A stretch of 64,000 nucleotides of DNA from an uncultured Candidatus Saccharibacteria bacterium (GCA_964627095.1 CAZVKH010000004.1:2886-66885), one strand, 5' to 3'; shown: positions 12,086 through 50,559, counted from the first letter of the stretch. Numbers and translations are program-made. Notes: generated from the letters alone by a model not told the origin.

Positions 12086-12484
12086 TTATCGCTTTTCGGG
12101 CGGAACAGTCGTGGCTGGCGCCATAAGTGTGTCGCCGGCCATTAAGTCACCTTTAATCTGGTCGTCAAAGTTATGGGCACCAGCTCGGTAATCATGACCC
12201 TTTGGTGTATAGTCCATGGCAAGACTGTTAAAGGTGTCCCCAGGGTTAGCAGTGATTTCCACAAAAGCGTCTGGGTTCTCTCTGGCTTCTTCGGCTGTAG
12301 GAACTTCGGTTTGGCGAGCCTCGTTGATATCACCAACTCGGTTCGCTACAACGCCGGTAGCAGCAGCTACTGCACTGGCCATCAAGACTGCGTTCCAGAC
12401 TTTGCGACCACGGCTAATGTCTTCACTGACGCGTGAGCTACGTGCGTTTGGGTTGTTGGCTGGGTTTTCGTGTGATGCGATCAT
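12086..12484 (-). CDS. membrane-anchored LysM-like protein
   Basis: One TM (VWNAVLMASAVAAATGVVA) and a C-terminal LysM-like pattern, PGDTFNSLAMDY...LMAGDTLMAP. Start set at ATG 12484, 7 nt after the -10 box TAGTAT. A terminator follows at 12035-12064. Confidence 0.45.
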   Translation of the reverse strand: MIASHENPANNPNARSSRVSEDISRGRKVWNAVLMASAVAAATGVVANRVGDINEARQTEVPTAEEARENPDAFVEITANPGDTFNSLAMDYTPKGHDYRAGAHNFDDQIKGDLMAGDTLMAPATTVPPEKR

Positions 12485-12491
12485 AGCCAAC

Positions 12492-12520
12492 ATACTAGCA
12501 TAAGCTTTGTTATTTGTCAA
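12492..12520 (-). promoter_or_regulatory. promoter TTGACA-N17-TAGTAT, leaderless (N7 to ATG 12484)
   Basis: The minus strand reads TTGACAAATAACAAAGCTTATGCTAGTAT GTTGGCT ATG. It shares a 16-mer with the promoter at 27253-27281. Confidence 0.7.
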
Positions 12521-12555
12521 TAATGTTGGCTGGGCTAACAGAGGCTAAGCTGGGA

Positions 12556-13806
12556 CTAACGTAATTGCTTGATAAGTTCACCAAACCACTTGGCGCTGGG
12601 GCGCAAGCTACGCTTCATGCCATTTTTGCGGTCCACCGCTACTAGGCCAAATTTGGGCCACCAACCGGCTTCCCATTCAAAGTTGTCTAATAAACTCCAG
12701 TGGAAGTAGCCGCGCAGGTCAACACCTTCGCTCAGAGCCCGTTCCATGGCCACGACAGTTTCTTCGATCCACCAACGGCGGAATTGGTCGTGAGCGTCGG
12801 CCACACCGTTTTCGGTAATAAAGATGGGCTTTTTGTAGCGCGCCCAGGCCCTTAATAGTAACGGGTAGACTCCCTCGGGCTCCATGTACCAGCCCAGGTC
12901 ATTCAGCGGTACCTTGGGGTTATTGGGCTTAAAGTGCTGGTAGTAGTCGGTAAAGTAGTAGTTAATGCCAATAAAGTCCTGCTGGTGGCGAGTGCGCCGC
13001 AAGAACCACCAGTTCCAGGCATAGCGCATCACCTTGGTAGTTGATTCGTCGATAATGTTATGCGGTCGCTTAGCCTGAATATTACCTAGTTGGGCGGCAA
13101 TGCCAACCTGCAGGTGTGGGTGGGCCTTCTTGAGTAATTTATAAGACTGTTTGTGCGCCAGGTGCAGGTTCCTGTAACTGGTAAAGGCCTTCCAGAAGTT
13201 CTTTTCTTGTGGTGGCCGGGTGGCCGTTACGAAACCGAGGCTCATGTAGACATTGGGTTCGTTCAGGGTAACTATGTAACCCAGGTCAGCACCATATTCA
13301 TCGGATATTTTTTGGACGAACCTTAAAAAGTACTTGAGGTTGGCGCGTTTGGCAAAGGCGCCTTTGTCCTGGAACCAAGTTGGCACCGTCCAGTGCCAGA
13401 TATTTAAGAAAGGTTCGATCTTGCGACGGCGCAGTTCGGCCAAGTAGTCGCGGTAATGCGCCACGGCGGCTTCGTCCCACACCCCTTCTTCGGGTTCCAA
13501 GCGGGCCCATTCGATGCTAAAGCGGAAGGCATTCATGTTCATGCTCTCCAGTAGATCAAAATCTTCTTTGTAACGGCTGTAGTGATCGACACCCTTACCA
13601 GAGACATAGTTGTCGGGTTCGGTGGCCTGAGACTTGATGTCGTCCCAATTGGGCAGCCAGTTCAGACGCTTGGGGGCGGTGCCAGCCAGTTCCTTGGCGT
13701 GAGCCAGTTCCCACACCGTCCAGTCGTCGTGCAAGCCACCTTCGACCTGGTGTCCAGCCGTGCTGGCGCCCCAGTAAAAGGATTTTGGAAAGATCGGTTT
13801 AGGCAT
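12556..13806 (-). CDS. glycoside hydrolase family 1 beta-glucosidase
   Basis: N-terminal signature FPKSFYWGASTAGHQVEGG, acid/base TLNEPN and nucleophile ITENG. Confidence 0.85.
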   Translation of the reverse strand: MPKPIFPKSFYWGASTAGHQVEGGLHDDWTVWELAHAKELAGTAPKRLNWLPNWDDIKSQATEPDNYVSGKGVDHYSRYKEDFDLLESMNMNAFRFSIEWARLEPEEGVWDEAAVAHYRDYLAELRRRKIEPFLNIWHWTVPTWFQDKGAFAKRANLKYFLRFVQKISDEYGADLGYIVTLNEPNVYMSLGFVTATRPPQEKNFWKAFTSYRNLHLAHKQSYKLLKKAHPHLQVGIAAQLGNIQAKRPHNIIDESTTKVMRYAWNWWFLRRTRHQQDFIGINYYFTDYYQHFKPNNPKVPLNDLGWYMEPEGVYPLLLRAWARYKKPIFITENGVADAHDQFRRWWIEETVVAMERALSEGVDLRGYFHWSLLDNFEWEAGWWPKFGLVAVDRKNGMKRSLRPSAKWFGELIKQLR

Positions 13807-13811
13807 GGTTC

Positions 13812-14531
13812 TTACTTTACACCAGATGGCCGGAGCTTCATATAATAGTCACGCTCCTCTGGCGCCAAGCGTTCCAAGGCGTAGCGCAGCGCTGTTCGTG
13901 GCATGGTAGCACCGTACTGATCCAAGAAGTCACGCAGGGCGTCTTGGTTCTTTTTTCCAGCCTCGCGCAGCATCCAACCAACCGCCTTGTGCATCAGGTC
14001 GTGCTCGTCGCCCAACAGGATTTCGGCAAGCGCAAAGGTGTCGTCCAGCTGCCCGACCCGAATAAATTGCCAGGTGCTGACCATGGCAATACGCCTCTCC
14101 CATAAACTTTTGGAACGAGCCAGTTTGTACAGCGGGTCACGCGGCTTGTCCATCAGGTAGCCACCAACCACTTGGCGGCAGCTGACATCTACCAAGTCCC
14201 AGTTGTTGATGCGGTCGGTGCGGCGCAAATACAGGTTGTACAGATCTTGCTGTAGAACCGGATCCTTGGCGCGCCTGGCTTGCTCGGTCATGATAATAAC
14301 GGCCGCCAGGCGGTGCTCGTGGATGGGGCTTTCCAGCACTGTTTCGATTTCTTTCAGGTTTAAACCCCTAAAGTCAGCCGCCACTTTGCGTGTTACGGGA
14401 ACGGTGATGCCAATAAAGATGTCGCCTTCGCCGTACTGCCCCTTCCCCGTCTTAAAAAAGCGCTGGGCAAACTGGGCGGCGTGCGGATCGCCGCGCTTAT
14501 CGAGTTCGATCATAAGCAGAGTGGCTGTCAT
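13812..14531 (-). CDS. DNA alkylation repair protein (AlkD-like HEAT repeat family)
   Basis: FAQRFFKTGKGQYGEGDIFIGITVP, NNWDLVD and GWMLRE patterns typical of the DNA_alkylation family. Start set at ATG 14531, 6 nt after the TACAAT box. Confidence 0.7.
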   Translation of the reverse strand: MTATLLMIELDKRGDPHAAQFAQRFFKTGKGQYGEGDIFIGITVPVTRKVAADFRGLNLKEIETVLESPIHEHRLAAVIIMTEQARRAKDPVLQQDLYNLYLRRTDRINNWDLVDVSCRQVVGGYLMDKPRDPLYKLARSKSLWERRIAMVSTWQFIRVGQLDDTFALAEILLGDEHDLMHKAVGWMLREAGKKNQDALRDFLDQYGATMPRTALRYALERLAPEERDYYMKLRPSGVK

Positions 14532-14537
14532 GCAGCT

Positions 14538-14552
14538 ATTGTACGCTATAAT
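14538..14552. promoter_or_regulatory. back-to-back divergent leaderless promoters (AlkD-like / DUF1345)
   Basis: On the minus strand, TACAAT (14543..14538) lies N6 before ATG 14531. On the plus strand, TATAAT (14547-14552) lies N7 before ATG 14560. Confidence 0.6.
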
Positions 14553-14559
14553 GCTTATG

Positions 14560-15213
14560 ATGAAACTGGCGCGCATTCACCGCAAAACCGAACCAATCTG
14601 GCACGTTCAACTGGCCATAGGTGTGGCCATTGCCGTGCAACTCCTTCTTAACAAAAGTTTTGCGGTTGGCCCTCAGAACCTGTTAGCCGGCATTGAGCTA
14701 TTGTTGCTGATTGCGATTAGTATTCCGGGGCGCAAACTTCATAAACACAAGCCTTTGGTAATCCGTCATCTTCTGGCAATTATACTATTGGGAATTATCA
14801 CTGTTTCTAACATTTTGTCGCTGGTGTTGGTTAGCATCGACCTGATTAACGGGTCGTCGGCCGACGGCCACGACTTAATCTTTTCGGCGGTGGTAATATT
14901 TGCCACCAATATTGTTATTTTTGGCTTACTCTACTGGGAGCTCGACGAAGATACTGGTGACGAAGACCCCGACACCACCCGTGATTTCTTGTTTCATCAA
15001 CTCGTCTTGCCTGCCAGCATCACCAAACAACCCTACTGGAACCCAACCTTCTTTGACTACTTGTATGTTTCCATTACCAACGCCACCGCTTTCAGCCCGT
15101 CCGACACCTTCCCGCTAACTCACCGGGCCAAGTTACTTATGGCAATCCAGTCCTTAACTTCGCTCACAACCGTGGTACTGGTGGCATCACGAGCCATTGC
15201 CATTCTGCGCTAG
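14560..15213 (+). CDS. DUF1345-like integral membrane protein
   Basis: 4-5 TM helices and YLYVSITNATAFSPSDT resembling the DUF1345 signature. The track ORF 14203.. is an antisense extension over the AlkD-like gene. Start set at ATG 14560, 7 nt after TATAAT (14547-14552). Confidence 0.55.
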   Translation: MKLARIHRKTEPIWHVQLAIGVAIAVQLLLNKSFAVGPQNLLAGIELLLLIAISIPGRKLHKHKPLVIRHLLAIILLGIITVSNILSLVLVSIDLINGSSADGHDLIFSAVVIFATNIVIFGLLYWELDEDTGDEDPDTTRDFLFHQLVLPASITKQPYWNPTFFDYLYVSITNATAFSPSDTFPLTHRAKLLMAIQSLTSLTTVVLVASRAIAILR

Positions 15214-15654
15214 CTAGAGCTGTCGACTATCGTAAGCCCAGTGCAATAAGGCCTGCCGTTGCTTGGTATGACAAGTGGCATCACCGGGGTGGCAAGCTTT
15301 TTTAACTTGCCCAACATGGCGGCGCATCGCCTTCCAGCGTTTAATTTGGCGTTCGTCCTCTTGAGGCAGCCGGCGACCCATGGTGTAGCGACAATACCAT
15401 TGGAACCAGCCCAAAGGATCTTCGTCGCTCAACCAGCCCTTCTCGGCCCAGACTTGATGTGACTGGCTGGCCATGACCCCAAAGTAGTTATAGTCCTTGG
15501 TCGGGCCTGCGGTACTCAGGCGGGCTTTGGCAAACCATTCTTTTGGGAATTCAGCCCGCTCTTCTTCGTTAAAATAGGCGCCGCCAAAGACGCCCAGCTC
15601 CAGCATCTGCTGGGGCGTGAGATCAGGTTTAAATTCATCGTAGATGGTCGGCAT
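15214..15654 (-). CDS. conserved hypothetical protein
   Basis: The 147-aa product has GVFGGAYF and PLGWFQWYCRYTMGRR..DERQIKRW motifs that I recognise as a recurring uncharacterised family but cannot name. Start set at ATG 15654. Confidence 0.5.
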   Translation of the reverse strand: MPTIYDEFKPDLTPQQMLELGVFGGAYFNEEERAEFPKEWFAKARLSTAGPTKDYNYFGVMASQSHQVWAEKGWLSDEDPLGWFQWYCRYTMGRRLPQEDERQIKRWKAMRRHVGQVKKACHPGDATCHTKQRQALLHWAYDSRQL

Positions 15655-15659
15655 ACTGT

Positions 15660-15672
15660 CAGTATGATAACA
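15660..15672. promoter_or_regulatory. divergent -10 elements for 15654(-) and the NUDIX gene 15680(+)
   Basis: On the minus strand, TGTTATCATACT lies 6-9 nt before ATG 15654. On the plus strand, TATGAT (15663-15668) lies 11 nt before ATG 15680. Confidence 0.5.
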
Positions 15673-15679
15673 TTTCAGC

Positions 15680-16123
15680 ATGAATCGACGCGTCGCCGCT
15701 CGCGGCATTATTGTGCACAATGGCCGTTTGCTATGCGCCCAGCTTAAAGCCTACGACGACAAGCCTGCTCAGGATTTTTGGTCGACACCAGGTGGTGGCG
15801 TTAACCCCGGCGAAGCCCTCATCCCTGCCCTGGAACGTGAAATCATCGAAGAAACTGGCATTAAGCCAAAGGTTGGTCGGTTACTATACATCCAACAGTT
15901 CGTCTGGCATGCCAATGAGCAGATGGAATTCTTTTTCTACATAGAAAATGCCAGCGACTACCTAAATATCGACATCACCCAAACCAGCCATGGTGCAGCC
16001 GAAATTGACCGCATCGAGTTCGTTGACCCCAAAGCAGTTACCGTGCTCCCCAAATTCTTGAAAGATGAAGACATGAATACTGTTGCAGCGCAGACTCAAC
16101 CCAAGATATTTAACTATCTGTAG
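15680..16123 (+). CDS. NUDIX hydrolase
   Basis: Nudix box GGGVNPGEALIPALEREIIEETGI. Confidence 0.85.
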   Translation: MNRRVAARGIIVHNGRLLCAQLKAYDDKPAQDFWSTPGGGVNPGEALIPALEREIIEETGIKPKVGRLLYIQQFVWHANEQMEFFFYIENASDYLNIDITQTSHGAAEIDRIEFVDPKAVTVLPKFLKDEDMNTVAAQTQPKIFNYL

Positions 16124-17645: not shown

Positions 17646-18998
<1,353 letters not shown>

Positions 18999-19006
18999 TG
19001 CGCCGT

Positions 19007-19015
19007 ATTATAACA
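19007..19015 (-). promoter_or_regulatory. extended -10 promoter TGTTATAAT, leaderless glyQS
   Basis: TGT+TATAAT (19015..19007), then 8 nt, then ATG 18998. Confidence 0.65.
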
Positions 19016-21880: not shown

Positions 21881-22083
21881 GAGGCGGCTGGCGTCGTCCA
21901 GTCGGCCTTAATCTTCTGAACTTTGTTTTCGGCCGTCTTTAAATAGCCCTCAAGCTCAGCCAGTATCTTCTGCCCGTCGGCGTATAACTCCAGTGCCCGT
22001 TCGACATCAATGTCGTCGGACTGCATTTCGGTTAAAACTGCGTCTAGTTGGGCTTGCAGGGTTTTATAAGATTTTTTAGCCAT
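21877..22083 (-). CDS. xseB: exodeoxyribonuclease VII small subunit
   Basis: 68-aa helical protein with an ERALELYADGQKILAELEGYLKTAE pattern. It lies directly after xseA. Confidence 0.75.
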   Translation of the reverse strand: MAKKSYKTLQAQLDAVLTEMQSDDIDVERALELYADGQKILAELEGYLKTAENKVQKIKADWTTPAAS

Positions 22084-22088
22084 AACTA

Positions 22089-24244: not shown

Positions 24245-24252
24245 TTGCAATC

Positions 24253-24280
24253 ATTATACCCCACAAAAACGCGCTATACT
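24253..24280. promoter_or_regulatory. back-to-back divergent leaderless promoters
   Basis: On the minus strand, TATAAT (24258..24253) lies N8 before ATG 24244. On the plus strand, TATACT (24275-24280) lies N8 before ATG 24289. Confidence 0.6.
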
Positions 24281-24288
24281 GTAGCTAA

Positions 24289-27252: not shown

Positions 27253-27281
27253 ATACTAGCATAAGCTTGATGTTTTGTCAA
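27253..27281 (-). promoter_or_regulatory. promoter TTGACA-N17-TAGTAT for the HExxH protein gene
   Basis: The minus strand reads TTGACAAAACATCAAGCTTATGCTAGTAT. A ~19-nt leader without an SD precedes ATG 27227. Confidence 0.65.
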
Positions 27282-27300: not shown

Positions 27301-27328
27301 AACAAAAAACGCCCCTCTGGGGAGCGTT
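27301..27328 (-). terminator. terminator-like hairpin after the small Pro-rich gene
   Basis: The minus strand reads AACGCUCCCC-AGA-GGGGCGUU followed by UUUUGUUU. The stem has a 2-nt bulge. Confidence 0.5.
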
Positions 27329-35597: not shown

Positions 35598-35605
35598 TAC
35601 TGCAG

Positions 35606-35611
35606 ATTATA
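35606..35611 (-). promoter_or_regulatory. -10 box TATAAT, leaderless prfB
   Basis: TATAAT (35611..35606), then 8 nt, then ATG 35597. It lies within the 16-nt gap after the upstream gene. Confidence 0.55.
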
Positions 35612-36240: not shown

Positions 36241-36290
36241 TGTTTAAGTTCTCGCTTATTTACATTATTGGTATCATACCATAAGCGTGA

Positions 36291-37577: not shown

Positions 37578-37707
37578 TAAATTGCCTCCAGCCTTCCCTG
37601 CCACTGCATACCAAAGAAATTGACTTTGTTTACGAATAGCGAAAGGTTATCCGCAGACCGCCTTTGGCGGGCGAGGACTCTAACCTTGAGATATTTGTAT
37701 AACAAAG

Positions 37708-40402: not shown

Positions 40403-40762
40403 CTATAATTCACGCCGAAATCGACGAATCACGCGTTGGTGAAACTTGGCCGACTCTTGTGTGTCTTTATACTTCTTAATTTGGTTCTTGAGCTTGGCCT
40501 CGACGATGTCAACGGCCGCGTACATATTAATGGTCGTCTCTTTGACTAATAGGGTTTCTTTAGGTAGATGTAGGATCACCTCGCACTGGCACTGCTTCTT
40601 GTCCTTGGCCTTGCTCTCTTTAAGCTTAACCTCGGCATGGGCCGATACCTTGGCATGCTTAGACATATACTTATCTAGGTGGCCAATCTTGCGTTTGGTG
40701 TACTTTTCTAAATCTTCATCGACTTGGAAGTGAACGCCATTGATTTCGATTTTTTGAATCAT
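40403..40762 (-). CDS. hpf: ribosome hibernation promoting factor / RaiA family (short form)
   Basis: S30AE-type pattern with LEKYTKRKIGHLDKY and MYAAVDIVEAKLKNQIKKYK. Its start overlaps the serS stop (ATGA). Confidence 0.8.
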   Translation of the reverse strand: MIQKIEINGVHFQVDEDLEKYTKRKIGHLDKYMSKHAKVSAHAEVKLKESKAKDKKQCQCEVILHLPKETLLVKETTINMYAAVDIVEAKLKNQIKKYKDTQESAKFHQRVIRRFRREL

Positions 40763-42051
40763 GCCCTACCTCCTATGTATGGTTTTAATACTTTAGGAAC
40801 CCGAATCGTGCCATCGTCTTTTTGGTAATTCTCCATGATGGCCTTGAGAATCCTACCCATTGCGAACGCCGTGGCGTCATTGGTGTGCACCAGCTCGACC
40901 GTACCACTGGTACGGCGGACTCGAGTTTGTAAACGGCGGGCTTGGTAGTCGGTCATATAATCGGCAGTATGCGTTTCGCGGTACTGCTGTTGCGCGGGCA
41001 TCCAGGTATTGATATCGACACCCTGCGCGTTGGGCTTGCCAATATCGGCGGTACATTTTTGGATCAACTGATATGGTAATTCAAGTTGTTGGACTAGGTA
41101 TTCCTGAATGGCCACTAGCAACTTATGTTCATCCAGCCCGGTTTCGGCGGTGCTAAAAACTTCCATCTCCATCTTGTCGAACTGATGCATGCGGAAGATG
41201 CCTTCGGTGTCCTTACCGTAGCTACCAGCTTCGCGTCGGAAGCTAGTGGCATAGCCCAGGTAACGAATTGGCAGATCTTTTTCGTCGAGAATTTCGTTCA
41301 TGTACATCGTGCATAAGCTGTGTTCGGCGCTGGCATTCATCCACAGATCGTCTTGGGCCAGCTTATAGGTCACCTCTTCGGCATCAAGTCGAGCCGACGC
41401 TTCGTAGGGTTCGGTCTTGACCATGGCCGGCGGCAGAACTGGCGTGAATGGTTTACTACTTACTTTAAGATTATTTTCTTTCACCAAACGAGCGATCAGT
41501 TTCTCGTCGCCCAATGCGTCCATAACAAATTGCATAATGGCAAACTGCAAACGCACTACGTCGCCCTTTAAATAGGCAAAGCGCGCACCGGCCACTTTAG
41601 CAGCCCGCTCTTTGTCGATTGTGTCATGCAAGCTACCCAACTCGGCGTCACTCTTGGCTTTAAAGCTAAACTTGGCAGGTTCGCCCACCGTCTTAACGAC
41701 GACGTTGTCGTCTTCGGTGGCGCCAACCGGCACTGTGTCCAACGAAACATTCGGTACCTTTTTATACAGCTCGTTGAACTTGGTTTCGACGGCTTCTAGC
41801 TCGGTTTCGATTTTAGCCAGTTTAGTTTTTAGAACCTTACCCTGTTCGATCTGCTCAGGGCTAGGCTTCTGTCCTTTGGTGCTAGCGGCCTGCTGATTAC
41901 GCAACTGGCGCAGCAATTCGGCATCGCCCAATAGCTGACGTCTTTGAGCATCAACTTCGATCAGCTTAGGGATGTCGACTTTGACGTTTTTTTGTTTAGC
42001 CTTCTGGGCAACCACTTCTGGATTATCACGGATGTACTGAATATCTAACAT
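40759..42051 (-). CDS. serS: serine--tRNA ligase
   Basis: MLDIQYIRDNPE N-terminus, a coiled-coil tRNA-binding arm and a class II core with FRREAGSYGKDTEGIFRMHQF. Confidence 0.9.
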   Translation of the reverse strand: MLDIQYIRDNPEVVAQKAKQKNVKVDIPKLIEVDAQRRQLLGDAELLRQLRNQQAASTKGQKPSPEQIEQGKVLKTKLAKIETELEAVETKFNELYKKVPNVSLDTVPVGATEDDNVVVKTVGEPAKFSFKAKSDAELGSLHDTIDKERAAKVAGARFAYLKGDVVRLQFAIMQFVMDALGDEKLIARLVKENNLKVSSKPFTPVLPPAMVKTEPYEASARLDAEEVTYKLAQDDLWMNASAEHSLCTMYMNEILDEKDLPIRYLGYATSFRREAGSYGKDTEGIFRMHQFDKMEMEVFSTAETGLDEHKLLVAIQEYLVQQLELPYQLIQKCTADIGKPNAQGVDINTWMPAQQQYRETHTADYMTDYQARRLQTRVRRTSGTVELVHTNDATAFAMGRILKAIMENYQKDDGTIRVPKVLKPYIGGRA

Positions 42052-42056
42052 ACTTA

Positions 42057-42066
42057 TATTATACAG
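42057..42066 (-). promoter_or_regulatory. -10 region CTGTATAATA, leaderless serS
   Basis: TATAAT (42063..42058), then 6 nt, then ATG 42051. Confidence 0.6.
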
Positions 42067-42281
42067 CTATCTGGCTAGACCTTTAACATATCAAGCTGTT
42101 TGGCGAGGCTACTGGCTTGGTCGGCGACAACCAACATCTGATCGGTCGGTATATTCTGGCTAATTATAGCCACGTATAATTTTCTATCCTTAATTTCAAC
42201 ACAGGTATAAGGCATACTGCTGCAGACTGGCTCAAGTAGAGCGCGAACCTTGTCTAGTAGAGCCTGCGACGTACCAGCTGC

Positions 42282-42701
42282 TTAATAGACAGTATACTTG
42301 GCGGTAATATTTGGCGACGATACATTAACGACTGCGAGCTCCTTTGTGCTTCGTGGCATACCCATCTTTTTATCAAGAAAGAATAGATGGCTTGGCTGCT
42401 TGAAGCTGGCGAGATCATACGATAAGGTCACTGTATCAAGATAAATCTTGAAAGCCATGCGGTGCTCTACGATCTGCGCAATACCTGTTTGGTCGTTATG
42501 TAGTTCAAAATGCACAATTGATTTGTAGTCTTGCAGGAAAGGCGGACAAACAAATGCAGAGTTCGGCGTAGTTCTCCAGCTCTTGGCTTCAAAACTACTG
42601 CGTATACGTTCCATCCTACGCTTCCCGGCGCCCTGAATTAATATAGCCACGATCATAAGGGGCACAAATAGTAACATAAAAACAATCAGGAACTGTATCA
42701 T
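42282..42701 (-). CDS. hypothetical membrane protein coupled to the upstream nuclease
   Basis: N-terminal TM (FLIVFMLLFVPLMIVAILI). The ATG directly abuts the nuclease stop (TAGATG), with an AAAGGAG SD inside the nuclease 3' end. Confidence 0.45.
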   Translation of the reverse strand: MIQFLIVFMLLFVPLMIVAILIQGAGKRRMERIRSSFEAKSWRTTPNSAFVCPPFLQDYKSIVHFELHNDQTGIAQIVEHRMAFKIYLDTVTLSYDLASFKQPSHLFFLDKKMGMPRSTKELAVVNVSSPNITAKYTVY

Positions 42702-43502
42702 CTATTTCTCCTTTCTTTTCGACTTTGTTTGGTTATGGATATATTTTAGCGTCAGTTCAGTCCGTTGGCGAGCGTACAAACAAAAATCGCATTCGCCGCC
42801 CATGGCAGCCGTGCCCACGGCGGGCATGTCACCGTCCAGGCATTGCTTCATTTTTACCAAGGTTGGTTCGACCCAGGCATCACTTCCCTTGTATGGAATT
42901 AGTTTGGTGCGGAATTCTAGGTGATCATTAAAACCGTCAACATCAATCCGGGCATTGGTGTACACAAAATAGCCGGTGTCACTAACCGGCAGACCATTCT
43001 GGCGCAACAGCCATTGGTAGACTTCGAGCTGGCGTTTGTAGCTAATCTGCCAGTCAGAGTCAATCGATACTTCTTTATCTTTAGAAGTGGCTTTGTAATC
43101 GACCACGATGGCGTTACCTTGGTCGTCTACCCACAAGTCGTCGATAGCACCAAAGACGTGCAAGTTTGTCGGCTGGTGAACGGCCACTACGCCAGTGAAG
43201 TTATGACGCCACTGATCCAAATTATCGTGCTGCATTGGCACGGCCTTAATTTGGTTGTCGGCCATAATTTTATGCGGCGTGCCAGCCTGACGGTGGCGGT
43301 CGAATTCTTTCTTATAGAGTTCGTCGATAGTCTTATTGATGTTGAAGGGTGGCCCATTGGGGCGCTTAATCTTAAGCCGGGCGTCCAACCAAAAACAGCG
43401 CGGGCACTGCATAAACAGCTCAATCTTGCTGCGGCTAACTTTAAAAACCTCGGCTTGGCCGGGCTGATACGGTTTGTTTCGTTCTTGCCAGTAATTCCCC
43501 AT
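42702..43502 (-). CDS. PD-(D/E)XK nuclease, Cas4/RecB-like with Cys cluster
   Basis: GAIDDLWVD...IVVDYK (D..DxK) and YKRQLEVYQW (QxxxY) motifs. N-terminal CPRC plus C-terminal C..CDFC cysteines suggest an Fe-S or Zn site. Start set at ATG 43502. Confidence 0.65.
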   Translation of the reverse strand: MGNYWQERNKPYQPGQAEVFKVSRSKIELFMQCPRCFWLDARLKIKRPNGPPFNINKTIDELYKKEFDRHRQAGTPHKIMADNQIKAVPMQHDNLDQWRHNFTGVVAVHQPTNLHVFGAIDDLWVDDQGNAIVVDYKATSKDKEVSIDSDWQISYKRQLEVYQWLLRQNGLPVSDTGYFVYTNARIDVDGFNDHLEFRTKLIPYKGSDAWVEPTLVKMKQCLDGDMPAVGTAAMGGECDFCLYARQRTELTLKYIHNQTKSKRKEK

Positions 43503-43509
43503 GAGGGTC

Positions 43510-44202
43510 TTATTGTAGCAGTTTGGCGACGGCGGCAACAGCGGCAGTTTCGGCGCGCAGCGTAAAGTCGCCCAACGGCAGCCGGCCAATTTCTTGAGTC
43601 ACAAATAGTTGCTTCTCTTGATCACTCCAGCCACCTTCGGGCCCGATTAGCACACCAACCTCGCTATAATTTGGTTGTCGTTGCTTGGTTAGTTCGTGCT
43701 GTTCGCAGACAAACAACGGCACTTTGCCGGCAAATTCGTGCAAAGCGGTTTGCAACAACAGCGGCTGTCTAATAGATGGAATATCGCCACGGCCACATTG
43801 TTCAGCGGCTTCGATAACAATTTTTTGGGCGCGCTCCTCGTTAAAGCCAGTCTTTTCGGAGCGTTCGGCCAGCACCGGCACCAAGTGGCTGGCGCCCAGC
43901 TCGGTCGCCTTCTGCAACACCCAGTCGTTCTTATCTTTCTTAAGTAGCGACCAAAACAAGTAAACCTCTTTGCTTGGCAGCTTGGCCACAAAGTCAGTTA
44001 GTAGCTCCAACTTAGCATGATCCTGGGCTAGTTCGTTCAGGCTATAAAGCTTTTCATGACCTTGACCGTCGAACAGAACTACTTCTTGGCCAACCCGAAA
44101 GCGCAATACCTTGCGCCACTGATCAACTAAGCGCTGCTCGCGAACTTCAACATAGTGCCCCAGGTGCAACTCTGGACCAGTGTAAAAACGGTGCAACCTC
44201 AC
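43510..44202 (-). CDS. rsmE: 16S rRNA (uracil1498-N3)-methyltransferase RsmE
   Basis: MRLHRFY N-terminus (PUA-like) and a C-terminal SPOUT knot IGPEGGWS. Confidence 0.8.
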   Translation of the reverse strand: MRLHRFYTGPELHLGHYVEVREQRLVDQWRKVLRFRVGQEVVLFDGQGHEKLYSLNELAQDHAKLELLTDFVAKLPSKEVYLFWSLLKKDKNDWVLQKATELGASHLVPVLAERSEKTGFNEERAQKIVIEAAEQCGRGDIPSIRQPLLLQTALHEFAGKVPLFVCEQHELTKQRQPNYSEVGVLIGPEGGWSDQEKQLFVTQEIGRLPLGDFTLRAETAAVAAVAKLLQ

Positions 44203-44849: not shown

Positions 44850-45701
44850 CTACGGTCGAAGCGTCCCAAAGAATACCTGCCAGGCTAAAGCCGACTTGGC
44901 CACCAAACTCAAAATCATATAAACTCGTTCGCCATACAAGTAATCGGCCCACTTGCCGACCTTCTTATACTGCAGATACATATTGACCGCAAAGCTCATA
45001 AAGAATAAGAACATGCTCAGGTAAATCCAGTAAACAAAGCTCGGGATCTGGCCGCTACCGTAGGCCGAAGCGCCGGCTACATAAATACCAAAGACGAACC
45101 ATGGCACTATGCCGGCCAGACAACCAATGTTGTAGCTAATCCAGCTGGTTTTTTTGGTAGTCTGGTTGTGAATCTCCATAACCAAGCCCATCATATTCAT
45201 AATAAAGTCGAGCACAAAGATCATCAGCAAGCTAGACAGATCATAAACACCACTCAACATGGCAATCGCCACCATCATGGTGCTGGCACTGATGCCATAC
45301 TCGAACCAACGCGCTTTGTTGATACCCTTCTTTAGGTCGGCTTCGTAGGTTTTACGATAAACCGTCGCGATTACCAAGTGTGCAATGGCTGACATAAAGA
45401 AGAAAGCCGCCACCAAGTAAGCCAAGTTAACATCAAACAGGTGCCGACTGGCGGCCACCAAAACCGGATTACCACTTTGCGATGCCAGCGTATCCAGCGT
45501 TAGATAGTTGGTTGTTACGGGGAAAGTTGAACTTTGGCTAAGCAGCAATACAGCCACTCCTTGCACAAAATGCAGACCGGCCATCACCAAGTTCCAGCTA
45601 TTCAAGCTAGCCAAACTAATCTTAGGTTTTTTGACCGCTTGCTTGGTTGTCTTGGTTGTTTTTGTAGTCTTTGCGTTCTTTGAGGTAGATTTTTTTGCCA
45701 T
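44850..45701 (-). CDS. heliorhodopsin (7-TM retinal protein, inverted topology family)
   Basis: Similar by eye along its full length to the heliorhodopsin prototype as I recall it. Matching segments are SLNSWNLVMAGLHFVQGVAVL, ARWFEYGISAS (Glu counterion position), GCLAGIVPW, and LQYKKVGKWADYLYGERVYMILSLVAKSALAWQVFFGTLRP (Schiff-base Lys in SLVAKS). Confidence 0.8.
   Translation of the reverse strand: MAKKSTSKNAKTTKTTKTTKQAVKKPKISLASLNSWNLVMAGLHFVQGVAVLLLSQSSTFPVTTNYLTLDTLASQSGNPVLVAASRHLFDVNLAYLVAAFFFMSAIAHLVIATVYRKTYEADLKKGINKARWFEYGISASTMMVAIAMLSGVYDLSSLLMIFVLDFIMNMMGLVMEIHNQTTKKTSWISYNIGCLAGIVPWFVFGIYVAGASAYGSGQIPSFVYWIYLSMFLFFMSFAVNMYLQYKKVGKWADYLYGERVYMILSLVAKSALAWQVFFGTLRP
45642..45668 (-). 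repeat. 9-bp tandem repeat encoding the (KTT)n N-terminal extension of the heliorhodopsin
   Basis: CTTGGTTGT occurs at 45642-45650 and 45651-45659, with a degenerate third copy at 45660-45668. Confidence 0.75.
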
Positions 45702-45707
45702 GCCTCT

Positions 45708-45716
45708 ACTTTAGCA
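45708..45716 (-). promoter_or_regulatory. extended -10 promoter TGCTAAAGT, leaderless heliorhodopsin
   Basis: TGC+TAAAGT (45716..45708), then 6 nt (AGAGGC), then ATG 45701. Confidence 0.55.
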
Positions 45717-45732: not shown

Positions 45733-47052
45733 TTAGCGCTTGTGTCGACGAACGGCGGCGACAGCCACGCCCATACCGGCGACAGCCGTAACACCAGCGA
45801 CTTTAGCAGCTCGTATTACTTGACGGCGACGCTTTTCGTGAGAGTCGTTGGGTTTGACTTCTTCATCAACAGCTTTGTCAGCTGGGATTTGGGCAGCAGC
45901 TATCTCAGGAGCCACTTGTGGGGCGGCCGCAACTGACTCACCAAGCTCGGCTAATCGGCGTTCAACTGCCTGGTTGACGATGAAGTCGAAATCACCAAAC
46001 CTAGCATCGATTATTCTCTGGACGCTGGCCAATTTTTCTTTTACTTCTTGGGCAAATTCTTCTTCTTTTAGGGCGAAGTAGGCGTCAATACCTTCTTTAC
46101 TTAACACTTCGGGGGTGGCCCTAGCAGGAGCAGTTGCTTCAACTGGTTCAGCGGCTGGCTCATCGTCGCCTCTTAGAATTTTAGGAACCACCCTTGTAGG
46201 TGCCGTGCCAGGGATGCGGCGTTTACGGCGACGCAACACAGGCGTGTTGTCAGGGTAGACCATATCTTCTGGAAGTAATGCTGGTGGTAGTTTAACCTTT
46301 TTTCCACGTTTATCGCGGACCGTGTCTCGACGCCAGCCAAGTACGTTGTCACGCTCAGGTATAGCTATATATGAACCCGTCGATCGCTCTTCTGGGCTGT
46401 TCAAATATACCGGGTGAACGTCTTGGTATTCGGCCTTAAGATCGGGGTCAGCGGCTAAAGCATCGGCACCAAATAATTCCTTGAACCGTTCCTCTGTGAG
46501 AACCTTTTTATAGTGCATCGGCTTTGAAAAAAATACTTCGTCAGCTTTTTCACCTTTTAGAGTGTAGTACCTTGGCGCTTCAGTATCTGTTGCATGGCCG
46601 TCAGTTGGTTTGGCAAGATTGGGTGCTGGCGAAGTGGCCGGGCTAGCAGTTGGCCAGCTAATCTTCTTATATAGCGTGTTGGGAGGACTAGGAACGACGG
46701 GCATTGCCTGGGTCTCACCGTCATTAGCTCCTACCACGCGCTTCTTTACATCGCGGGTTGGCGCAGCCGGTTCTGCTGCGGGTGCTGAATCCTGAGCTCC
46801 CTGACCGAACCTGCCAACAAGACCAGTGCCTCGTACAAGACGAGGGGTTATTTCATCGCGTGGCACACCAGTTACTGCAGCTATTGCATCAATGTCTAAA
46901 TATCCTGCCAGTTTCACCTGATCTGGAGTTGGCTGTGCCGCTACCGGAGGTGCTGCGGGCATCTGAATTTCGCCCCAATCTACAATAGGCAAAGCTGGAC
47001 CAGCTTCGGGGCCAGGTGCGGGCACAGCTGAAGGAAAGCGTGGATTTGTCAT
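45733..47052 (-). CDS. hypothetical Pro/Ala-rich protein with C-terminal TM anchor
   Basis: 439 aa, with C-terminal VAGVTAVAGMGVAVAAV followed by RRHKR. No known motif. Start set at ATG 47052, 7 nt after TGTTAGTAT. Confidence 0.45.
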   Translation of the reverse strand: MTNPRFPSAVPAPGPEAGPALPIVDWGEIQMPAAPPVAAQPTPDQVKLAGYLDIDAIAAVTGVPRDEITPRLVRGTGLVGRFGQGAQDSAPAAEPAAPTRDVKKRVVGANDGETQAMPVVPSPPNTLYKKISWPTASPATSPAPNLAKPTDGHATDTEAPRYYTLKGEKADEVFFSKPMHYKKVLTEERFKELFGADALAADPDLKAEYQDVHPVYLNSPEERSTGSYIAIPERDNVLGWRRDTVRDKRGKKVKLPPALLPEDMVYPDNTPVLRRRKRRIPGTAPTRVVPKILRGDDEPAAEPVEATAPARATPEVLSKEGIDAYFALKEEEFAQEVKEKLASVQRIIDARFGDFDFIVNQAVERRLAELGESVAAAPQVAPEIAAAQIPADKAVDEEVKPNDSHEKRRRQVIRAAKVAGVTAVAGMGVAVAAVRRHKR

Positions 47053-47059
47053 AGGTGTT

Positions 47060-47068
47060 ATACTAACA
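47060..47068 (-). promoter_or_regulatory. extended -10 promoter TGTTAGTAT, leaderless 439-aa gene
   Basis: TGT+TAGTAT, then 7 nt (AACACCT), then ATG 47052. Confidence 0.6.
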
Positions 47069-47090
47069 TAAACGGGTTGTTTTTGCAACT

Positions 47091-47588
47091 TTATTTTTCT
47101 GTATGTTGGTCTACGGACTGGTATGGAATATGGCACATTCCCCTGCCGGTACGTTCGGCAAATTTCTGGTGATAGGCTTCGGCCGGGTAAAACTCACTTG
47201 CTGGTGAGATTTGGGTAACAATCGGTTCTGGCCAGTTATCTTGGGCTTCGGCTTTGGCGGCCTCGGCAGCCTTTTGCTGTGACTTGTCTTGGTAGAAAAT
47301 AGCACTGCGATAGCTGTCGCCGACATCGGGACCTTGGCGATTGAGCTGGGTTGGGTCATGCAGTCTAAAGAAGTGTTGCAGTAGAATTTGGTAACTGACT
47401 TGTTTAGGGTCAAAAGTGACCTGGACGGCTTCGGCGTGGCCGGTGTTATGGGTGCAAACCTCTTCGTAAGTGGGGTCTTGGGTATGGCCACCGGTGTAGC
47501 CAACAATTGTTTTGGTGACGCCGGGAATTTGGTCAAAATAGTATTGCACTCCCCAAAAACAGCCGGCCGCGAAAATTGCTTGTTCCAT
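47091..47588 (-). CDS. msrA: peptide-methionine (S)-S-oxide reductase MsrA
   Basis: AAGCFWGVQYYF catalytic Cys motif and GHAEAVQVTFDP. Confidence 0.9.
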   Translation of the reverse strand: MEQAIFAAGCFWGVQYYFDQIPGVTKTIVGYTGGHTQDPTYEEVCTHNTGHAEAVQVTFDPKQVSYQILLQHFFRLHDPTQLNRQGPDVGDSYRSAIFYQDKSQQKAAEAAKAEAQDNWPEPIVTQISPASEFYPAEAYHQKFAERTGRGMCHIPYQSVDQHTEK

Positions 47589-47595
47589 GTTAGTC

Positions 47596-47601
47596 AGTAT
47601 A
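47596..47601 (-). promoter_or_regulatory. -10 box TATACT, leaderless msrA
   Basis: TATACT (47601..47596), then 7 nt (GACTAAC), then ATG 47588. It sits immediately after the terminator at 47606-47637. Confidence 0.6.
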
Positions 47602-47605
47602 GCCT

Positions 47606-47637
47606 AAAAAGAAACCAGCCCTAGTGTGTAGGGCTGG
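47606..47637 (-). terminator. rho-independent terminator after the hdeD-like gene
   Basis: On the minus strand, CCAGCCCUA-CACAC-UAGGGCUGG (9-bp stem) is followed by UUUCUUUUU. Confidence 0.8.
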
Positions 47638-47675
47638 CGTTCTCGGCAAGAGACCGAATGGACTGAATTTTAGTA

Positions 47676-48230
47676 TTATTGTTCGAGTGTTTTTTTGACG
47701 TCTAGTGACAGTGCGATCATCAACGGACCAACAACCAAGGCGTATAGACCAAATAGCCATACGAATGCGACACCGCTAGCGGCAGGTTGGAAGAGCATGA
47801 TTACACCAACTAAGAATGATACCAAACCAGCTAGGATGGTAAGCATACGGCCAGTGGCACTGAGGCCATCTTCGGCGAAAGCCACAACGACTTCGAAGAT
47901 ACCGCGGGCGATGAAGGTCAAACCAACTACCAAAATGAAGGTGGCGAAGGTTACCTGTGGATGGCGTACCAAGTACAAACCAACGGCTGCTTCGATTACA
48001 CCAAGCAGTACAGTTAGTGGCCAGCCACGATGTTGACCCATCGACATAAGACCTTGGAATACGTTAATAACACCGGCGAGCATTACAAAGGCGCTAACCA
48101 GGTATACAAGTGAAACAAGTGTTAGGCCAGGCCAAAACACGGCTGTTACACCAAACATTAATACGGCGATGCCGCGGATTGTTAAAGCCCACCAATTTAC
48201 AGCGAGATTATCTGCTACTTTCTTTGCCAT
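47676..48230 (-). CDS. HdeD/DUF308 family membrane protein
   Basis: Repeated DUF308-type TM pairs (WWALTIRGIAVLMFGVTAVFWP). AAGGAGG SD 7 nt upstream, and a strong terminator downstream. Confidence 0.7.
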   Translation of the reverse strand: MAKKVADNLAVNWWALTIRGIAVLMFGVTAVFWPGLTLVSLVYLVSAFVMLAGVINVFQGLMSMGQHRGWPLTVLLGVIEAAVGLYLVRHPQVTFATFILVVGLTFIARGIFEVVVAFAEDGLSATGRMLTILAGLVSFLVGVIMLFQPAASGVAFVWLFGLYALVVGPLMIALSLDVKKTLEQ

Positions 48231-48318
48231 GAATGGTCCTCCTTATTTGGTCTCTATAAACCAATAATGCACCGCTTTAGGGGTAAATGCAAGCAGAAGC
48301 ATGTTGTAATTATTTTGC

Positions 48319-48621
48319 CTATTCTTGAACTTGAACGTCTTGCCAAAAAGCTACGTAATTACTGAAGTCTTTTTTGACGGCATCGATGGCACTTGGCAAT
48401 GGTTCTGGATAGCTCCAAGCATTGTCTTTGCTAGTCTTATCGCCTTCGACAACGTTGAAGTATTGGCAGACTCCCTTCCATGGACAGGTATAAGGCGTGT
48501 CACTTTTTTGTAAGAACTCGGTCTTGACGCTGGCTGGCGGAAAGTACCAGTTCCCTTCTATGTAGATTAAATCTTCTTTAGAGGCTTCGGCGATTGTTTG
48601 ATTGTTCCAAATTGCTTTCAT
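48319..48621 (-). CDS. DUF427 domain protein
   Basis: AIWNNQTIAEAS..IYIEGNWYFP..CPWKGVCQYFNV pattern. Start set at ATG 48621, 6 nt after TATACT. Confidence 0.7.
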   Translation of the reverse strand: MKAIWNNQTIAEASKEDLIYIEGNWYFPPASVKTEFLQKSDTPYTCPWKGVCQYFNVVEGDKTSKDNAWSYPEPLPSAIDAVKKDFSNYVAFWQDVQVQE

Positions 48622-48627
48622 GCTTTT

Positions 48628-48633
48628 AGTATA
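48628..48633 (-). promoter_or_regulatory. -10 box TATACT, leaderless DUF427 gene
   Basis: TATACT (48633..48628), then 6 nt, then ATG 48621. Confidence 0.55.
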
Positions 48634-48635
48634 CG

Positions 48636-49010
48636 CTATTCGAGCGCGTGGATTTGCGGGTGGTCGAGTCCAAAGTAATGCGCCATCTCGTGCCACAGGG
48701 TGTGGCGGACGTTTTCTTGCAACTCCTCAGGAGTGTTACTTTTATAGGCTAAGGGGTGCTTGAACAAGGTAATCTTGTCGGGCATCAGCTTAACCATGCC
48801 ACCACGGGCTGGCAGCGGGACGCCTTCGTATAAGCCAAGTAGGGTTTGGTCGTGACGCAGTTTGAGCTGGTAGTGTTGTTCCGGCGTCGGGTCATCGGCG
48901 TAGACAATGGCCACGTTGTCGAGTTTTTGGGTGTACTTTTTAGGTAAAGAATCGAGGGCGCGGCCAACAATTAAGTCAAACTCGTCGTCGGTAGGTATGG
49001 CGACGGACAT
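48636..49010 (-). CDS. small zincin-like metallopeptidase family protein (DUF1025-like)
   Basis: C-terminal HEMAHYFGLDH motif. 124 aa. Confidence 0.7.
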   Translation of the reverse strand: MSVAIPTDDEFDLIVGRALDSLPKKYTQKLDNVAIVYADDPTPEQHYQLKLRHDQTLLGLYEGVPLPARGGMVKLMPDKITLFKHPLAYKSNTPEELQENVRHTLWHEMAHYFGLDHPQIHALE

Positions 49011-49014
49011 GGCT

Positions 49015-50547
49015 TTAGGCTTCTAGTTTGAGACGTTTTATTAGCCAGTCGCGCGGCAGCATACTCAAGAACCAACCAGCGCGCGGTCCGGAGTCTTTGC
49101 CGATTAAGACTTGGTAGAGCGTAGTAAATAGCTCTTTGGGGGCAAGCTCGGTTTGGTCCTTGAATTCATAGATGGCTTGGTGGAACCATGCGCCGTCGGC
49201 GTCTTGAGGAGCATCGGCGACTTTTTGACCCAACTGCTGCAGGTAGGTTTTCTGGGCTTCGGATAACGAACTGGTTTGAAGTGTTTGTAGCGGCTCGAAC
49301 TTAACGTCCTCGGGAGCCCACAGCTTAAGCCACTCACTAATAAAAGCTAGTTCCCTAATAATAATGTCGCGATCTTCGCCGACCACCTTACCGTATTCGG
49401 TGCGGGCTAGGATTTCGAGTGTCTTTTGGGCATCTTTCAAAGCTGCCTGGTAGCTGGCGACTAAGTGAGAAAATGGCACACGGCTGACCGTTTTTTCTTG
49501 GCTGCCCCGGTTGCATACGTACAGTAGTTGCTGGTCCGACTCGGACAGGTCGGGCTGGCTACTGAGAGCAGCGTACTCATCAACCAGTTTAATAGTGCCC
49601 TCGGTTTGGTCAAAGTAGAGGCGTTTGGCTGGCGCGTAGCGCAACATGAAGAAGCGCGTTACTTCGGCTGGTAACACCTTAATAATTTCGGTAGCCTGGA
49701 TACCGGTGCCCCGGCTGGCACTCATCTTTTTATTGTCGCCGGCCAGGTTCACAAAATCGTATGGCACGGGGATCGGTGGATTGGCCTTATAAATTTGTTC
49801 CATCATGCCAACGCCGGTGTCAAATGAGCCACCCTTTGTAGCGTGATCACGGCCAAACGGCTCGGCGTTAACGCCAAGCAGCCACCAGCGACCCGGCCAG
49901 TCCAGTCGCCAATCCAACTTAACAGCGCCCTTATCGTAGGCAACGCTCTGAGTGTTACCTTCCTTATCTTCGTAACTAAGGGTCTTGGCTTTAGTATCAA
50001 TCCCCAAGAAGCGACGGTTCTTGAGATAGCCGTCTTCCATAATTTGGATCGGCGACCAGTGCTCATCGAGTTGACGGCCGGCCACAGTTTCGAGGGTTTG
50101 TTTGGCTTGAGCCATATGTTCAAGACAGCGCTCGATAGCCGGTACAAAAAAGCCTTGGCGATATTTTTGGTGACTATAAATAACTTCCATCTCGATACCA
50201 AGCGCCTTGGCACTGGCGATAAAGTCATCCAGAAAATAGTCGGCATAGGAACGATCGGTGCCGTCGGGTGCCGGAATGTCACAGAGTGGTTTGCCCAAAT
50301 ACTTTTCGTATTCGGCCGGTATGTTACCTGGTATCTTACGTAAGCCATCGAGGTCGTCGGCAAAGTGCACATGCCGAGCCTGGCGGCCACGGCGGCGTAG
50401 CTCCAACAGAATAGCGTCACTGGTAATAATCTCGCGCAGGTGCCCAACATGATAGGTACCCGACGGCGAAGCCCCAGATGACACCAGAATTTCACCATCT
50501 GGGTGTTTGGTAATCAACTCATCAACAAGCGTCTGAAGCCACTGCAT
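49015..50547 (-). CDS. lysK: lysine--tRNA ligase, class I
   Basis: Class I signature SGASPSGTYHVGHLRE (HIGH variant) and KMSASRG (KMSKS variant). 510 aa. Confidence 0.85.
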   Translation of the reverse strand: MQWLQTLVDELITKHPDGEILVSSGASPSGTYHVGHLREIITSDAILLELRRRGRQARHVHFADDLDGLRKIPGNIPAEYEKYLGKPLCDIPAPDGTDRSYADYFLDDFIASAKALGIEMEVIYSHQKYRQGFFVPAIERCLEHMAQAKQTLETVAGRQLDEHWSPIQIMEDGYLKNRRFLGIDTKAKTLSYEDKEGNTQSVAYDKGAVKLDWRLDWPGRWWLLGVNAEPFGRDHATKGGSFDTGVGMMEQIYKANPPIPVPYDFVNLAGDNKKMSASRGTGIQATEIIKVLPAEVTRFFMLRYAPAKRLYFDQTEGTIKLVDEYAALSSQPDLSESDQQLLYVCNRGSQEKTVSRVPFSHLVASYQAALKDAQKTLEILARTEYGKVVGEDRDIIIRELAFISEWLKLWAPEDVKFEPLQTLQTSSLSEAQKTYLQQLGQKVADAPQDADGAWFHQAIYEFKDQTELAPKELFTTLYQVLIGKDSGPRAGWFLSMLPRDWLIKRLKLEA

Positions 50548-50553
50548 AGATAT

Positions 50554-50559
50554 ATTGTA
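50554..50559 (-). promoter_or_regulatory. -10 box TACAAT, leaderless lysK
   Basis: TACAAT (50559..50554), then 6 nt (ATATCT), then ATG 50547. Confidence 0.6.

Follow-up and report, generated by a model that had tools for sequence, protein, structure and literature searches.

In the genomes that GeneMarkS-2 assigns to its group C, mostly Actinobacteria and Deinococcus-Thermus, a Pribnow box lies 6 to 8 nucleotides (nt) from the start of operon-first genes, a ribosome-binding site (RBS) is found on the other genes, and 25 to 50% of operons are predicted to be leaderless (PMC6028130). About a quarter of mycobacterial transcripts have neither a 5′ untranslated region (UTR) nor a Shine-Dalgarno (SD) sequence, and an ATG or GTG at the 5′ end suffices in mycobacteria, whereas Escherichia coli strongly prefers ATG (PMC4633059). 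The main text of PMC6028130 does not mention Saccharibacteria. Our full-text literature searches returned no paper describing a leaderless layout for Saccharibacteria, Patescibacteria, or the candidate phyla radiation (CPR), and the TM7x transcriptome paper contains no analysis of transcription start sites (TSSs), promoters, or UTRs. We analyzed a 64,000-nt stretch of Saccharibacteria DNA (the window; CAZVKH010000004.1:2886-66885, with positions counted from its first letter) in which an initial annotation had placed −10-like hexamers 6 to 9 nt before the ATG of at least 15 genes with no SD. We consider it likely, with a probability of about 85%, that these boxes are leaderless bacterial promoters from which the mRNA would start at or near the AUG, and that this layout is class-wide in Saccharimonadia.

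Results

A −10-like box is enriched 6 to 9 nt before ATG

The window has a G+C content of about 50%, is very compact, and carries its genes mostly on the minus strand. Pfam and NCBIfam support glyQS, serS, lysK, proS, prfB, prfA, ftsE/ftsX, secA, hpf, greA, frr, tsf, rpsB, L27, L31, msrA, and heliorhodopsin, among others, and no tRNA genes were found in it. The class I LysRS encoded by lysK (49015-50547, minus strand) is 95% identical to its counterpart in L001, a Patescibacteria metagenome-assembled genome (MAG) that is a close relative with about 87% nucleotide identity to the window, and 55 to 69% identical to homologs from about 55 Saccharimonadia or Saccharibacteria MAGs. For the wider comparisons we used 57 related Saccharimonadia loci, all from MAGs and totaling about 880 kb. 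Metagenome relatives recovered through glyQS were of mixed taxonomy with little synteny, and we used them only for glyQS, L27, and a negative control.

We scored the position of the box in a way that does not depend on start calls. An ATG was taken as open reading frame (ORF) proximal if the frame stayed open for 100 codons or more after it and the upstream in-frame stop was no more than 60 codons away, and the frequency of a −10-like hexamer k bases before such ATGs was compared with the expectation from other offsets. The set was limited to ORF 5′ ends because a version with all ATGs was too noisy from codon periodicity. The strict motif was TATAAT with at most one mismatch, and the loose motif was TANNNT, which occurs at about 1.5 to 2% per offset. 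In the window, 27 of 130 ORF-proximal ATGs had TANNNT at 6 to 9 nt upstream (10.2 expected; P = 2.6 × 10−6), and the strict motif was found at these offsets 12 times (1.7 expected; P = 1.4 × 10−7). Among the 57 related loci, the strict box preceded 4.5, 3.9, 3.0, and 3.1% of ORF-proximal ATGs at k = 6, 7, 8, and 9, compared to about 0.5% at other offsets and about 0.2% for internal ATGs; summed over k = 6 to 9, this amounts to 251 of 1,736 (14.5%) versus a background of 1.8%. The excess was seen individually in nearly every Saccharimonadia locus. The more distant loci recovered through glyQS (L115 to L132) had no excess, which shows that the test itself does not generate the peak. We rejected a stop-codon artifact, since TA[TC]NNT, which cannot begin with the stop codon of an upstream gene, keeps the peak.

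The box was specific to ATG and rarely accompanied an SD. GTG and TTG starts in the relatives showed no peak with the strict motif (1.1% and 1.2%, respectively, versus a background of 1.9%). At the ORF-proximal ATGs of the relatives, an SD core was present in 14.5% (4.5% for internal ATGs) and a box in 19.7% (4.0% for internal ATGs), and the two occurred together at only 11 ATGs when 49.6 were expected (P = 9 × 10−14). Expressed as an excess over background in the 880 kb, there were about 270 leaderless-type starts and about 190 strict-core SD starts.

The box has the flanks of a promoter

We took 341 hits from the relatives, aligned them by their hexamers, and set them against 86 controls drawn from internal ATGs, using only selection-free positions. 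The hexamer consensus was TAtaaT. A TGn extension was present in 30% of the hits and 2.3% of the controls, 54% having G at −14 and 39% having T at −15; T at −17 occurred in 43%, and there was a weak TTG at −35 to −33. Most of these promoters have no canonical −35. At the modal spacer of 6 nt between hexamer and start codon, a pyrimidine directly preceded the ATG (−1) in 79%. A promoter survey (PMC12641261), which includes 188 RNA-seq-derived TSSs for N. lyticus, reports that, relative to −10 elements, the TSS is centered 7 bp downstream. With a 6-nt spacer, the A of the ATG is the seventh base past the hexamer, and because the usual distance from −10 to TSS is about 7 bp, we infer a TSS at the start codon.

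SD-led genes, too, had boxes of this kind, at a greater distance upstream. The promoter of greA (51027-51087, minus strand) has TGTTATAAT at 51079-51087, where 47 nt separate the hexamer from the ATG (51027-51029) and the SD GAGAGGA lies in between. The RR gene at 20657 has TGCTATACT with a 27-nt spacer, and frr (55688-55727, minus strand) has the −10 element TACAAT within 55714-55727, followed by the SD GGGAG and a TTG start (55688-55690). Since these boxes stand at varied distances before SD-led genes, the spacing between box and start is not fixed by a translational role. This bears on the alternative that the box is an A/U-rich, non-SD ribosome-binding element acting in the RNA, as in the Bacteroidetes of GeneMarkS-2 group B, within a longer leader transcribed from promoters further upstream. 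The motif is indeed A/T-rich and sits about where an SD would, and SD-less leaders exist in the window (27227, 36240, 63707, 10133, and 11180). However, an RNA element does not account for TGn in register, TTG at −35, or the invariant A−11/T−7 frame, nor for the variable distances at greA, the RR gene, and frr. The box is also rare before packed internal genes (5 of 28), and the restriction to ATG suits initiation at a 5′ end. At msrA (47586-47638, minus strand), an intrinsic terminator made up of a hairpin (47614-47638) and a T-tract stops 2 nt short of the −10 element (TATACT 47596-47601; 7-nt spacer; ATG 47586-47588), leaving no room for a leader. We therefore regard an RNA-level element as very unlikely.

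The box is conserved in orthologs, and several starts have support independent of it

To score orthologs, we fixed the N terminus by tblastn and then searched the upstream DNA for a box or an SD. A box 5 to 9 nt before the conserved ATG was present in 28 of 32 serS and 34 of 49 lysK orthologs, in surroundings that were otherwise unalignable, and for lysK it was kept in orthologs whose upstream neighbors differ widely. The orthologs of SD-type genes seldom had a box (rpsB, 0/19; tsf, 0/19; greA, 2/45; hpf, 1/27; L27, 0/13) and mostly had an SD site (18/19, 15/19, 28/45, 19/27, and 13/13, respectively). Pooled, box presence in serS and lysK versus the SD-type genes differed with P = 3 × 10−31 (Fisher's exact test). 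The mode of start, leaderless type or SD, varied among relatives for proS, frr, rseP, L31, and prfA. Orthologs of glyQS often had TATAAT with a spacer of 10 to 12 nt, which would correspond to a leader of 3 to 5 nt. Box and ATG were kept between the window and L001, whereas at 47052, heliorhodopsin, lysK, and serS the DNA immediately upstream had indels or no longer aligned. The −10 element of the DUF427 gene, TATACT in the window, was TATAAT in L001. Upstream of serS, the 230-nt gap (42052-42281) aligned with the otherwise 87 to 92% identical L001 only from 29 nt before the ATG; this gap is a variable spacer that may contain a short ORF.

Protein profiles provided start positions independent of the box. 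The FtsE equivalog profile TIGR02673 was matched over positions 1 to 214 by residues 1 to 215 of ftsE read from 34043, the DUF427 protein read from 48621 begins at profile position 1, and for serS, msrA, lysK, and L31 the profile match sets in at residue 1 to 3. The start at 47052 was backed by indels relative to L001. For ftsE, the DUF427 gene, 47052, and 15654, the initial annotation was right that naive ORF starts were over-extended. The short forms of ftsE (227 amino acids [aa]), the DUF427 gene (100 aa), and gene 15654 (146 aa) are already present in public protein collections, and the long ORF forms are not, so the correction matters only for a naive ORF list. The AlkD-like protein was absent from the public protein collection searched in both its 239-aa and its 254-aa form; its start may be 14513, in frame and six codons further in. 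The start of glyQS could be 18977, where the profile begins, but close relatives retain the ATG at the 18998 position.

These results also address whether the pattern arose by chance from A/T-rich intergenic DNA combined with the selection of an in-frame ATG near some TANNNT. In its favor, TANNNT is a loose motif, and 8 of the 15 starts differ from the start of the longest ORF. Against it, the tests that used no start calls peaked sharply at 6 to 9 nt in window and relatives alike, boxes were conserved before ATGs fixed by protein alignment, and profile coordinates confirmed the starts of ftsE, serS, msrA, lysK, and DUF427. Chance is refuted for the set as a whole and, as a general explanation, extremely unlikely; it may still hold for individual weak cases.

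Leaderless-type genes in the window

We surveyed 71 genes with curated starts in the window. All 15 of the start codons, hexamers, and spacers initially listed lay on the coding strand as described, with a spacer of 6 nt in five, 7 nt in five, 8 nt in four, and 9 nt in one, and the TGn extension, which had been called frequent, was present in 6 of the 15 versus about 1 by chance. Together with three genes that had not been listed (NUDIX, 15680; xseB, 22083; and a nuclease gene, 43502), they make up 18 strong leaderless-type cases. An SD core was absent in 17 of the 18, lysK having only a distant GAGG at 12 nt. About seven weaker cases (1943, 13806, 19527, 21364, 27227, 28103, and 34446) bring the leaderless-type share to 18 to 25 of 71 genes; chance should account for some 4 to 6 of these 25 loosely defined cases, of which 1943, 13806, 27227, 28103, and 34446 are weak. 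Twenty of the 25 may head a transcription unit, as judged from an upstream gap of 15 nt or more or a divergent neighbor, and five had neither.

Six of the strong cases form three divergent pairs. The AlkD-like gene (14529-14543, minus strand; ATG 14529-14531, TACAAT 14538-14543, 6-nt spacer) stands back to back with a gene for a hypothetical 217-aa protein (14547-14562, plus strand; TATAAT 14547-14552, 7 nt, ATG 14560-14562), whose earlier label DUF1345 did not stand (Pfam E = 0.036 only, below the cutoff). A gene for a hypothetical 146-aa protein (15652-15672, minus strand; ATG 15652-15654, TGT plus TATCAT 15664-15669, 9 nt) faces away from the NUDIX gene (15665-15682, plus strand; TGA plus TAACAT 15668-15673, 6 nt, ATG 15680-15682). 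The third pair consists of an LPG-synthase-TM family gene (24242-24258, minus strand; ATG 24242-24244, TATAAT 24253-24258, 8 nt) and a methyltransferase gene (24275-24291, plus strand; TATACT 24275-24280, 8 nt, ATG 24289-24291). Between the ATGs of the three pairs (14529-14562, 15652-15682, and 24242-24291) there are 28, 25, and 44 nt, and the opposite-strand −10 boxes of the 15654/15680 pair share 2 bp (ATGA-TA-ACAT). The −35 zone of each promoter falls within the partner gene, so the polymerases of a pair should compete.

The other strong cases, besides msrA, are all on the minus strand. The gene for a hypothetical 132-aa protein (12482-12520; ATG 12482-12484, TGC plus TAGTAT 12492-12497, 7 nt) has a −35 TTGACA at 12515-12520; it had been labeled LysM, for which there was no Pfam hit. 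The box of glyQS (18996-19015; ATG 18996-18998) is TGT plus TATAAT (19007-19012, 8 nt), and that of xseB (22081-22101; ATG 22081-22083) is TGG plus TACTAT (22093-22098, 9 nt), inside the 3′ end of xseA. They are followed by ftsE (34041-34059; ATG 34041-34043, TGC plus TATAAT 34051-34056, 7 nt), prfB (35595-35611; ATG 35595-35597, TATAAT 35606-35611, 8 nt), and serS (42049-42063; ATG 42049-42051, TATAAT 42058-42063, 6 nt). The PD-(D/E)XK nuclease gene (43500-43520; ATG 43500-43502, TGC plus TACAAT 43512-43517, 9 nt) has a start region identical in L001. A gene for a hypothetical 439-aa protein (47050-47088; ATG 47050-47052, TGT plus TAGTAT 47060-47065, 7 nt) has a −35 TTGCAA at 47083-47088, and the heliorhodopsin gene (45699-45716; ATG 45699-45701) has TGC plus TAAAGT (45708-45713, 6 nt). 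The DUF427 gene (48619-48633; ATG 48619-48621, TATACT 48628-48633, 6 nt) and lysK (50545-50559; ATG 50545-50547, TACAAT 50554-50559, 6 nt) complete the set. The heliorhodopsin gene (44850-45701; Pfam PF18761, E = 5 × 10−93), here in a Saccharibacteria genome, lies directly downstream of the 439-aa protein gene, whose product has no known family. The release factor gene prfB (RF2; 34503-35597) is an uninterrupted 364-codon ORF that matches the RF2 model over 9 to 355 and has no programmed +1 frameshift site.

Several of these genes raise the alternative that the promoters are real but that packed genes are mostly translated by termination-reinitiation from read-through polycistronic mRNA, with leaderless translation minor or conditional. 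The gaps that separate xseB, the nuclease gene, DUF427, prfB, glyQS, and lysK from a co-directional upstream neighbor measure only 5 to 23 nt and contain no terminator, and read-through transcripts probably also exist at such closely packed boxes. However, read-through is inapplicable to the six divergent genes (14531/14560, 15654/15680, and 24244/24289), to msrA behind its terminator, and to serS, ftsE, and 12484 with gaps of 71 to 230 nt, and the lysK box persists despite quite different upstream neighbors in orthologs. As the main account of these genes, read-through has in our estimate only a slim chance of being right.

The closely packed boxes nevertheless count against a leaderless reading, as do other points. 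No TSS or N-terminal data for the organism or a close relative were found in the sources searched. A scan of 40 to 58.5 kb for a full −35/−10 consensus gave no enrichment over shuffles (13 versus 18.7). At spacers of 8 to 9 nt, and in the many glyQS orthologs with 10 to 12 nt, the transcript may have a leader of 1 to 5 nt. In 8 of the 15 genes initially listed, the start codon had been picked partly for its box. Start support independent of the box covers ftsE, DUF427, 47052, and 15654, is weak for the AlkD-like gene, and is lacking for 12484. The motif, its position and enrichment, its promoter-like flanks, the restriction to ATG, the exclusion of SD, and the conservation in orthologs are direct observations, and on them the core of the initial annotation held, namely, a −10 box so positioned, at genes with no SD, that transcription is expected to begin at the A of the ATG or beside it. 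The TSS and the mode of ribosome initiation are the parts of the leaderless reading that would follow from these observations.

SD-led genes and short leaders

The window contains 29 SD-led genes, including five with a GTG start and one with a TTG start. The six SD examples initially given were all found: the M16 peptidase gene (37575-37589; GGAGG, 7 nt to ATG), the DUF308/HdeD-like gene (48228-48244; AAGGAGG, 7 nt to ATG), rpsB (57587-57601; AGGAG, 6 nt to ATG), frr with its TTG start, mraZ (11847-11863, gene 11499-11849; AAGAGGAA / AAAGAGGAA before the GTG start at 11849), and gene 42701, which abuts the nuclease gene (42699-42714; AAAGGAG). These genes are on the minus strand, as is hpf (40760-40775; AGGAGGT), which overlaps the stop codon of serS.

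How the two modes are distributed differed from what had been proposed. For genes that come first in an operon, leaderless starts had been described as the rule. The window has 41 genes with an upstream gap of 15 nt or more or with a divergent neighbor; about half of them (20) were leaderless type, 16 were SD led, and 5 had neither signal. Genes that head a unit with a leader and an SD include rpsB, frr, greA, proS, mraZ, M16, DUF308, and RR 20657, with greA and frr as clear counterexamples. Strong SD sites had in turn been ascribed to internal genes, which proved overstated, as only 12 of 28 tightly packed genes had an SD core; five others were leaderless type (two with weak hexamers) and 11 had neither signal, many of these sharing an ATGA-type stop/start overlap with the upstream gene. 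SD sites are thus neither confined to internal genes nor universal there.

Three further promoters would, from their sequences, give very short leaders of 4 to 8 nt. The gene for ribosomal protein L31 (57767-57791, plus strand), which had been called ORF 57714 and has its true start at 57789, has TGTGTATAAT 12 nt before the ATG and no SD. Gene 7970 (7968-7991, minus strand) has TATAAT at 14 nt, with AAGGA within a leader of about 7 nt, and prfA (58209-58228, plus strand) has TATACT at 11 nt overlapping AAGGA.

A recurrent promoter form was seen on the minus strand, where GCTTATG(C/G)TA, a TRTG-type extended −10, is common to four promoters (12492-12520, 27253-27281, 27569-27597, and about 36270-36286), three of which have a perfect TTGACA at 17 nt. 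They precede genes for proline/glutamine-rich proteins without a known family (12484, 27227, a 60-aa ORF at 27350-27532, and 36240). In two of them (27564 and 27247), CTGTTAATACA lies just downstream of the −10 element and could be a candidate operator. The 60-aa ORF belongs to a small transcription unit (27350-27597, minus strand) that the 80-aa cutoff of the first ORF list had missed; it consists of TTGACA-N17-TAAATT, the SD GAGGA, a 60-codon proline-rich ORF (ATG 27532 to TAA 27350), and a terminator-like hairpin with a T-run at about 27306-27330.

Aminoacyl-tRNA synthetase genes and leader control

It had been proposed that four aminoacyl-tRNA synthetase genes lack any leader-based control. 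This applies to glyQS, serS, and lysK, which are leaderless type; proS is SD led behind a terminator-like hairpin and may have leader control. No T-box or other Rfam family was found: a search of the whole window with Rfam returned nothing at the gathering threshold (no T-box, riboswitch, or known small RNA), and at E ≤ 1 over 41.9 to 52.6 kb and 27.15 to 27.7 kb there was nothing except two weak, chance-level hits. A structured leader RNA of 150 to 300 nt has no place in the upstream gaps of glyQS (19 nt) and lysK (23 nt), and the 230-nt gap before serS shows no conservation with L001 beyond −29. At proS (52346), a G+C-rich hairpin with a T-run (52368-52388, minus strand) lies directly before the SD and about 115 nt past the end of the upstream gene, and it is identical in L001. 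This hairpin may serve to terminate the upstream operon or to attenuate proS. A −10-like TAAAAT/TATATT was seen about 12 to 25 nt upstream of the hairpin.

Discussion

In the model that we propose, sigma-70-type promoters, which belong to the −10 or extended −10 class and for the most part lack a good −35, would direct RNA polymerase to start at the A of the ATG or 1 to 2 nt before it. The mRNA would begin with AUG and carry no SD, and the ribosome would load directly on the 5′-terminal AUG. Later genes on such transcripts would rely on an SD or a stop/start overlap, and other transcription units would have a similar promoter further upstream and a short leader with an SD. We lean, with considerable reserve, toward the broader view that leaderless starts are the commonest single way to begin transcription units across Saccharimonadia, at least as frequent as SD-led starts, essentially AUG only, and previously undescribed for the lineage.

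If so, Saccharibacteria, perhaps together with more of the Patescibacteria/CPR, whose ribosomes are pared down, would be a further large lineage that relies on leaderless initiation beside Actinobacteria and Deinococcus-Thermus, and would add a data point on bacteria in which such initiation is common to the study of its evolution. Naive ORF tracks over-extend many Saccharibacteria genes, and the box helps to set their N termini. Genetic tools for cultivated Saccharibacteria have been built on borrowed promoters (tuf and rpsJ), and riboswitches acting through the untranslated region have been put forward in a review as a means of control. Should the 5′ UTR be missing in a quarter of genes, riboswitch or RBS engineering at the native locus would fail for those genes, and a module of 15 to 20 bp consisting of an extended −10 and an ATG may suffice for expression. 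Leaderless-type genes, including the three aminoacyl-tRNA synthetase genes, would not be controllable through a leader. Compared with the T-box and attenuator leaders known for such genes, we found nothing shared, and serS, lysK, and glyQS have no space for a leader.

The layout is the known bacterial leaderless kind of group C, here in a further lineage and with local features of its own: ATG only, a frequent TRTG-type extension, and usually a poor −35. The window shares with group C the position of the box and the SD sites at other genes, with about half of the candidate first genes leaderless type, and differs in that its host belongs to Saccharibacteria (Patescibacteria/CPR) with a G+C content of about 50% and in that the box often has the TRTG-type extension. 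The share of leaderless-type genes, 18 to 25 of 71, resembles that in mycobacteria; unlike in mycobacteria, the box peak in Saccharimonadia (strict motif) occurs before ATG only, which is nearer the preference of E. coli. Archaeal leaderless genes (group D) likewise combine leaderless first genes with internal genes that have an RBS, but their TATA/BRE-type box lies 22 to 26 nt before the start, whereas here a bacterial −10 lies at 6 to 9 nt. The Bacteroidetes of group B resemble the window in that an SD is absent at many genes. However, the Bacteroidetes motif precedes first and internal genes alike, in leadered mRNAs, whereas the box in the window excludes SD, has promoter flanks, and mostly precedes genes with an upstream gap.

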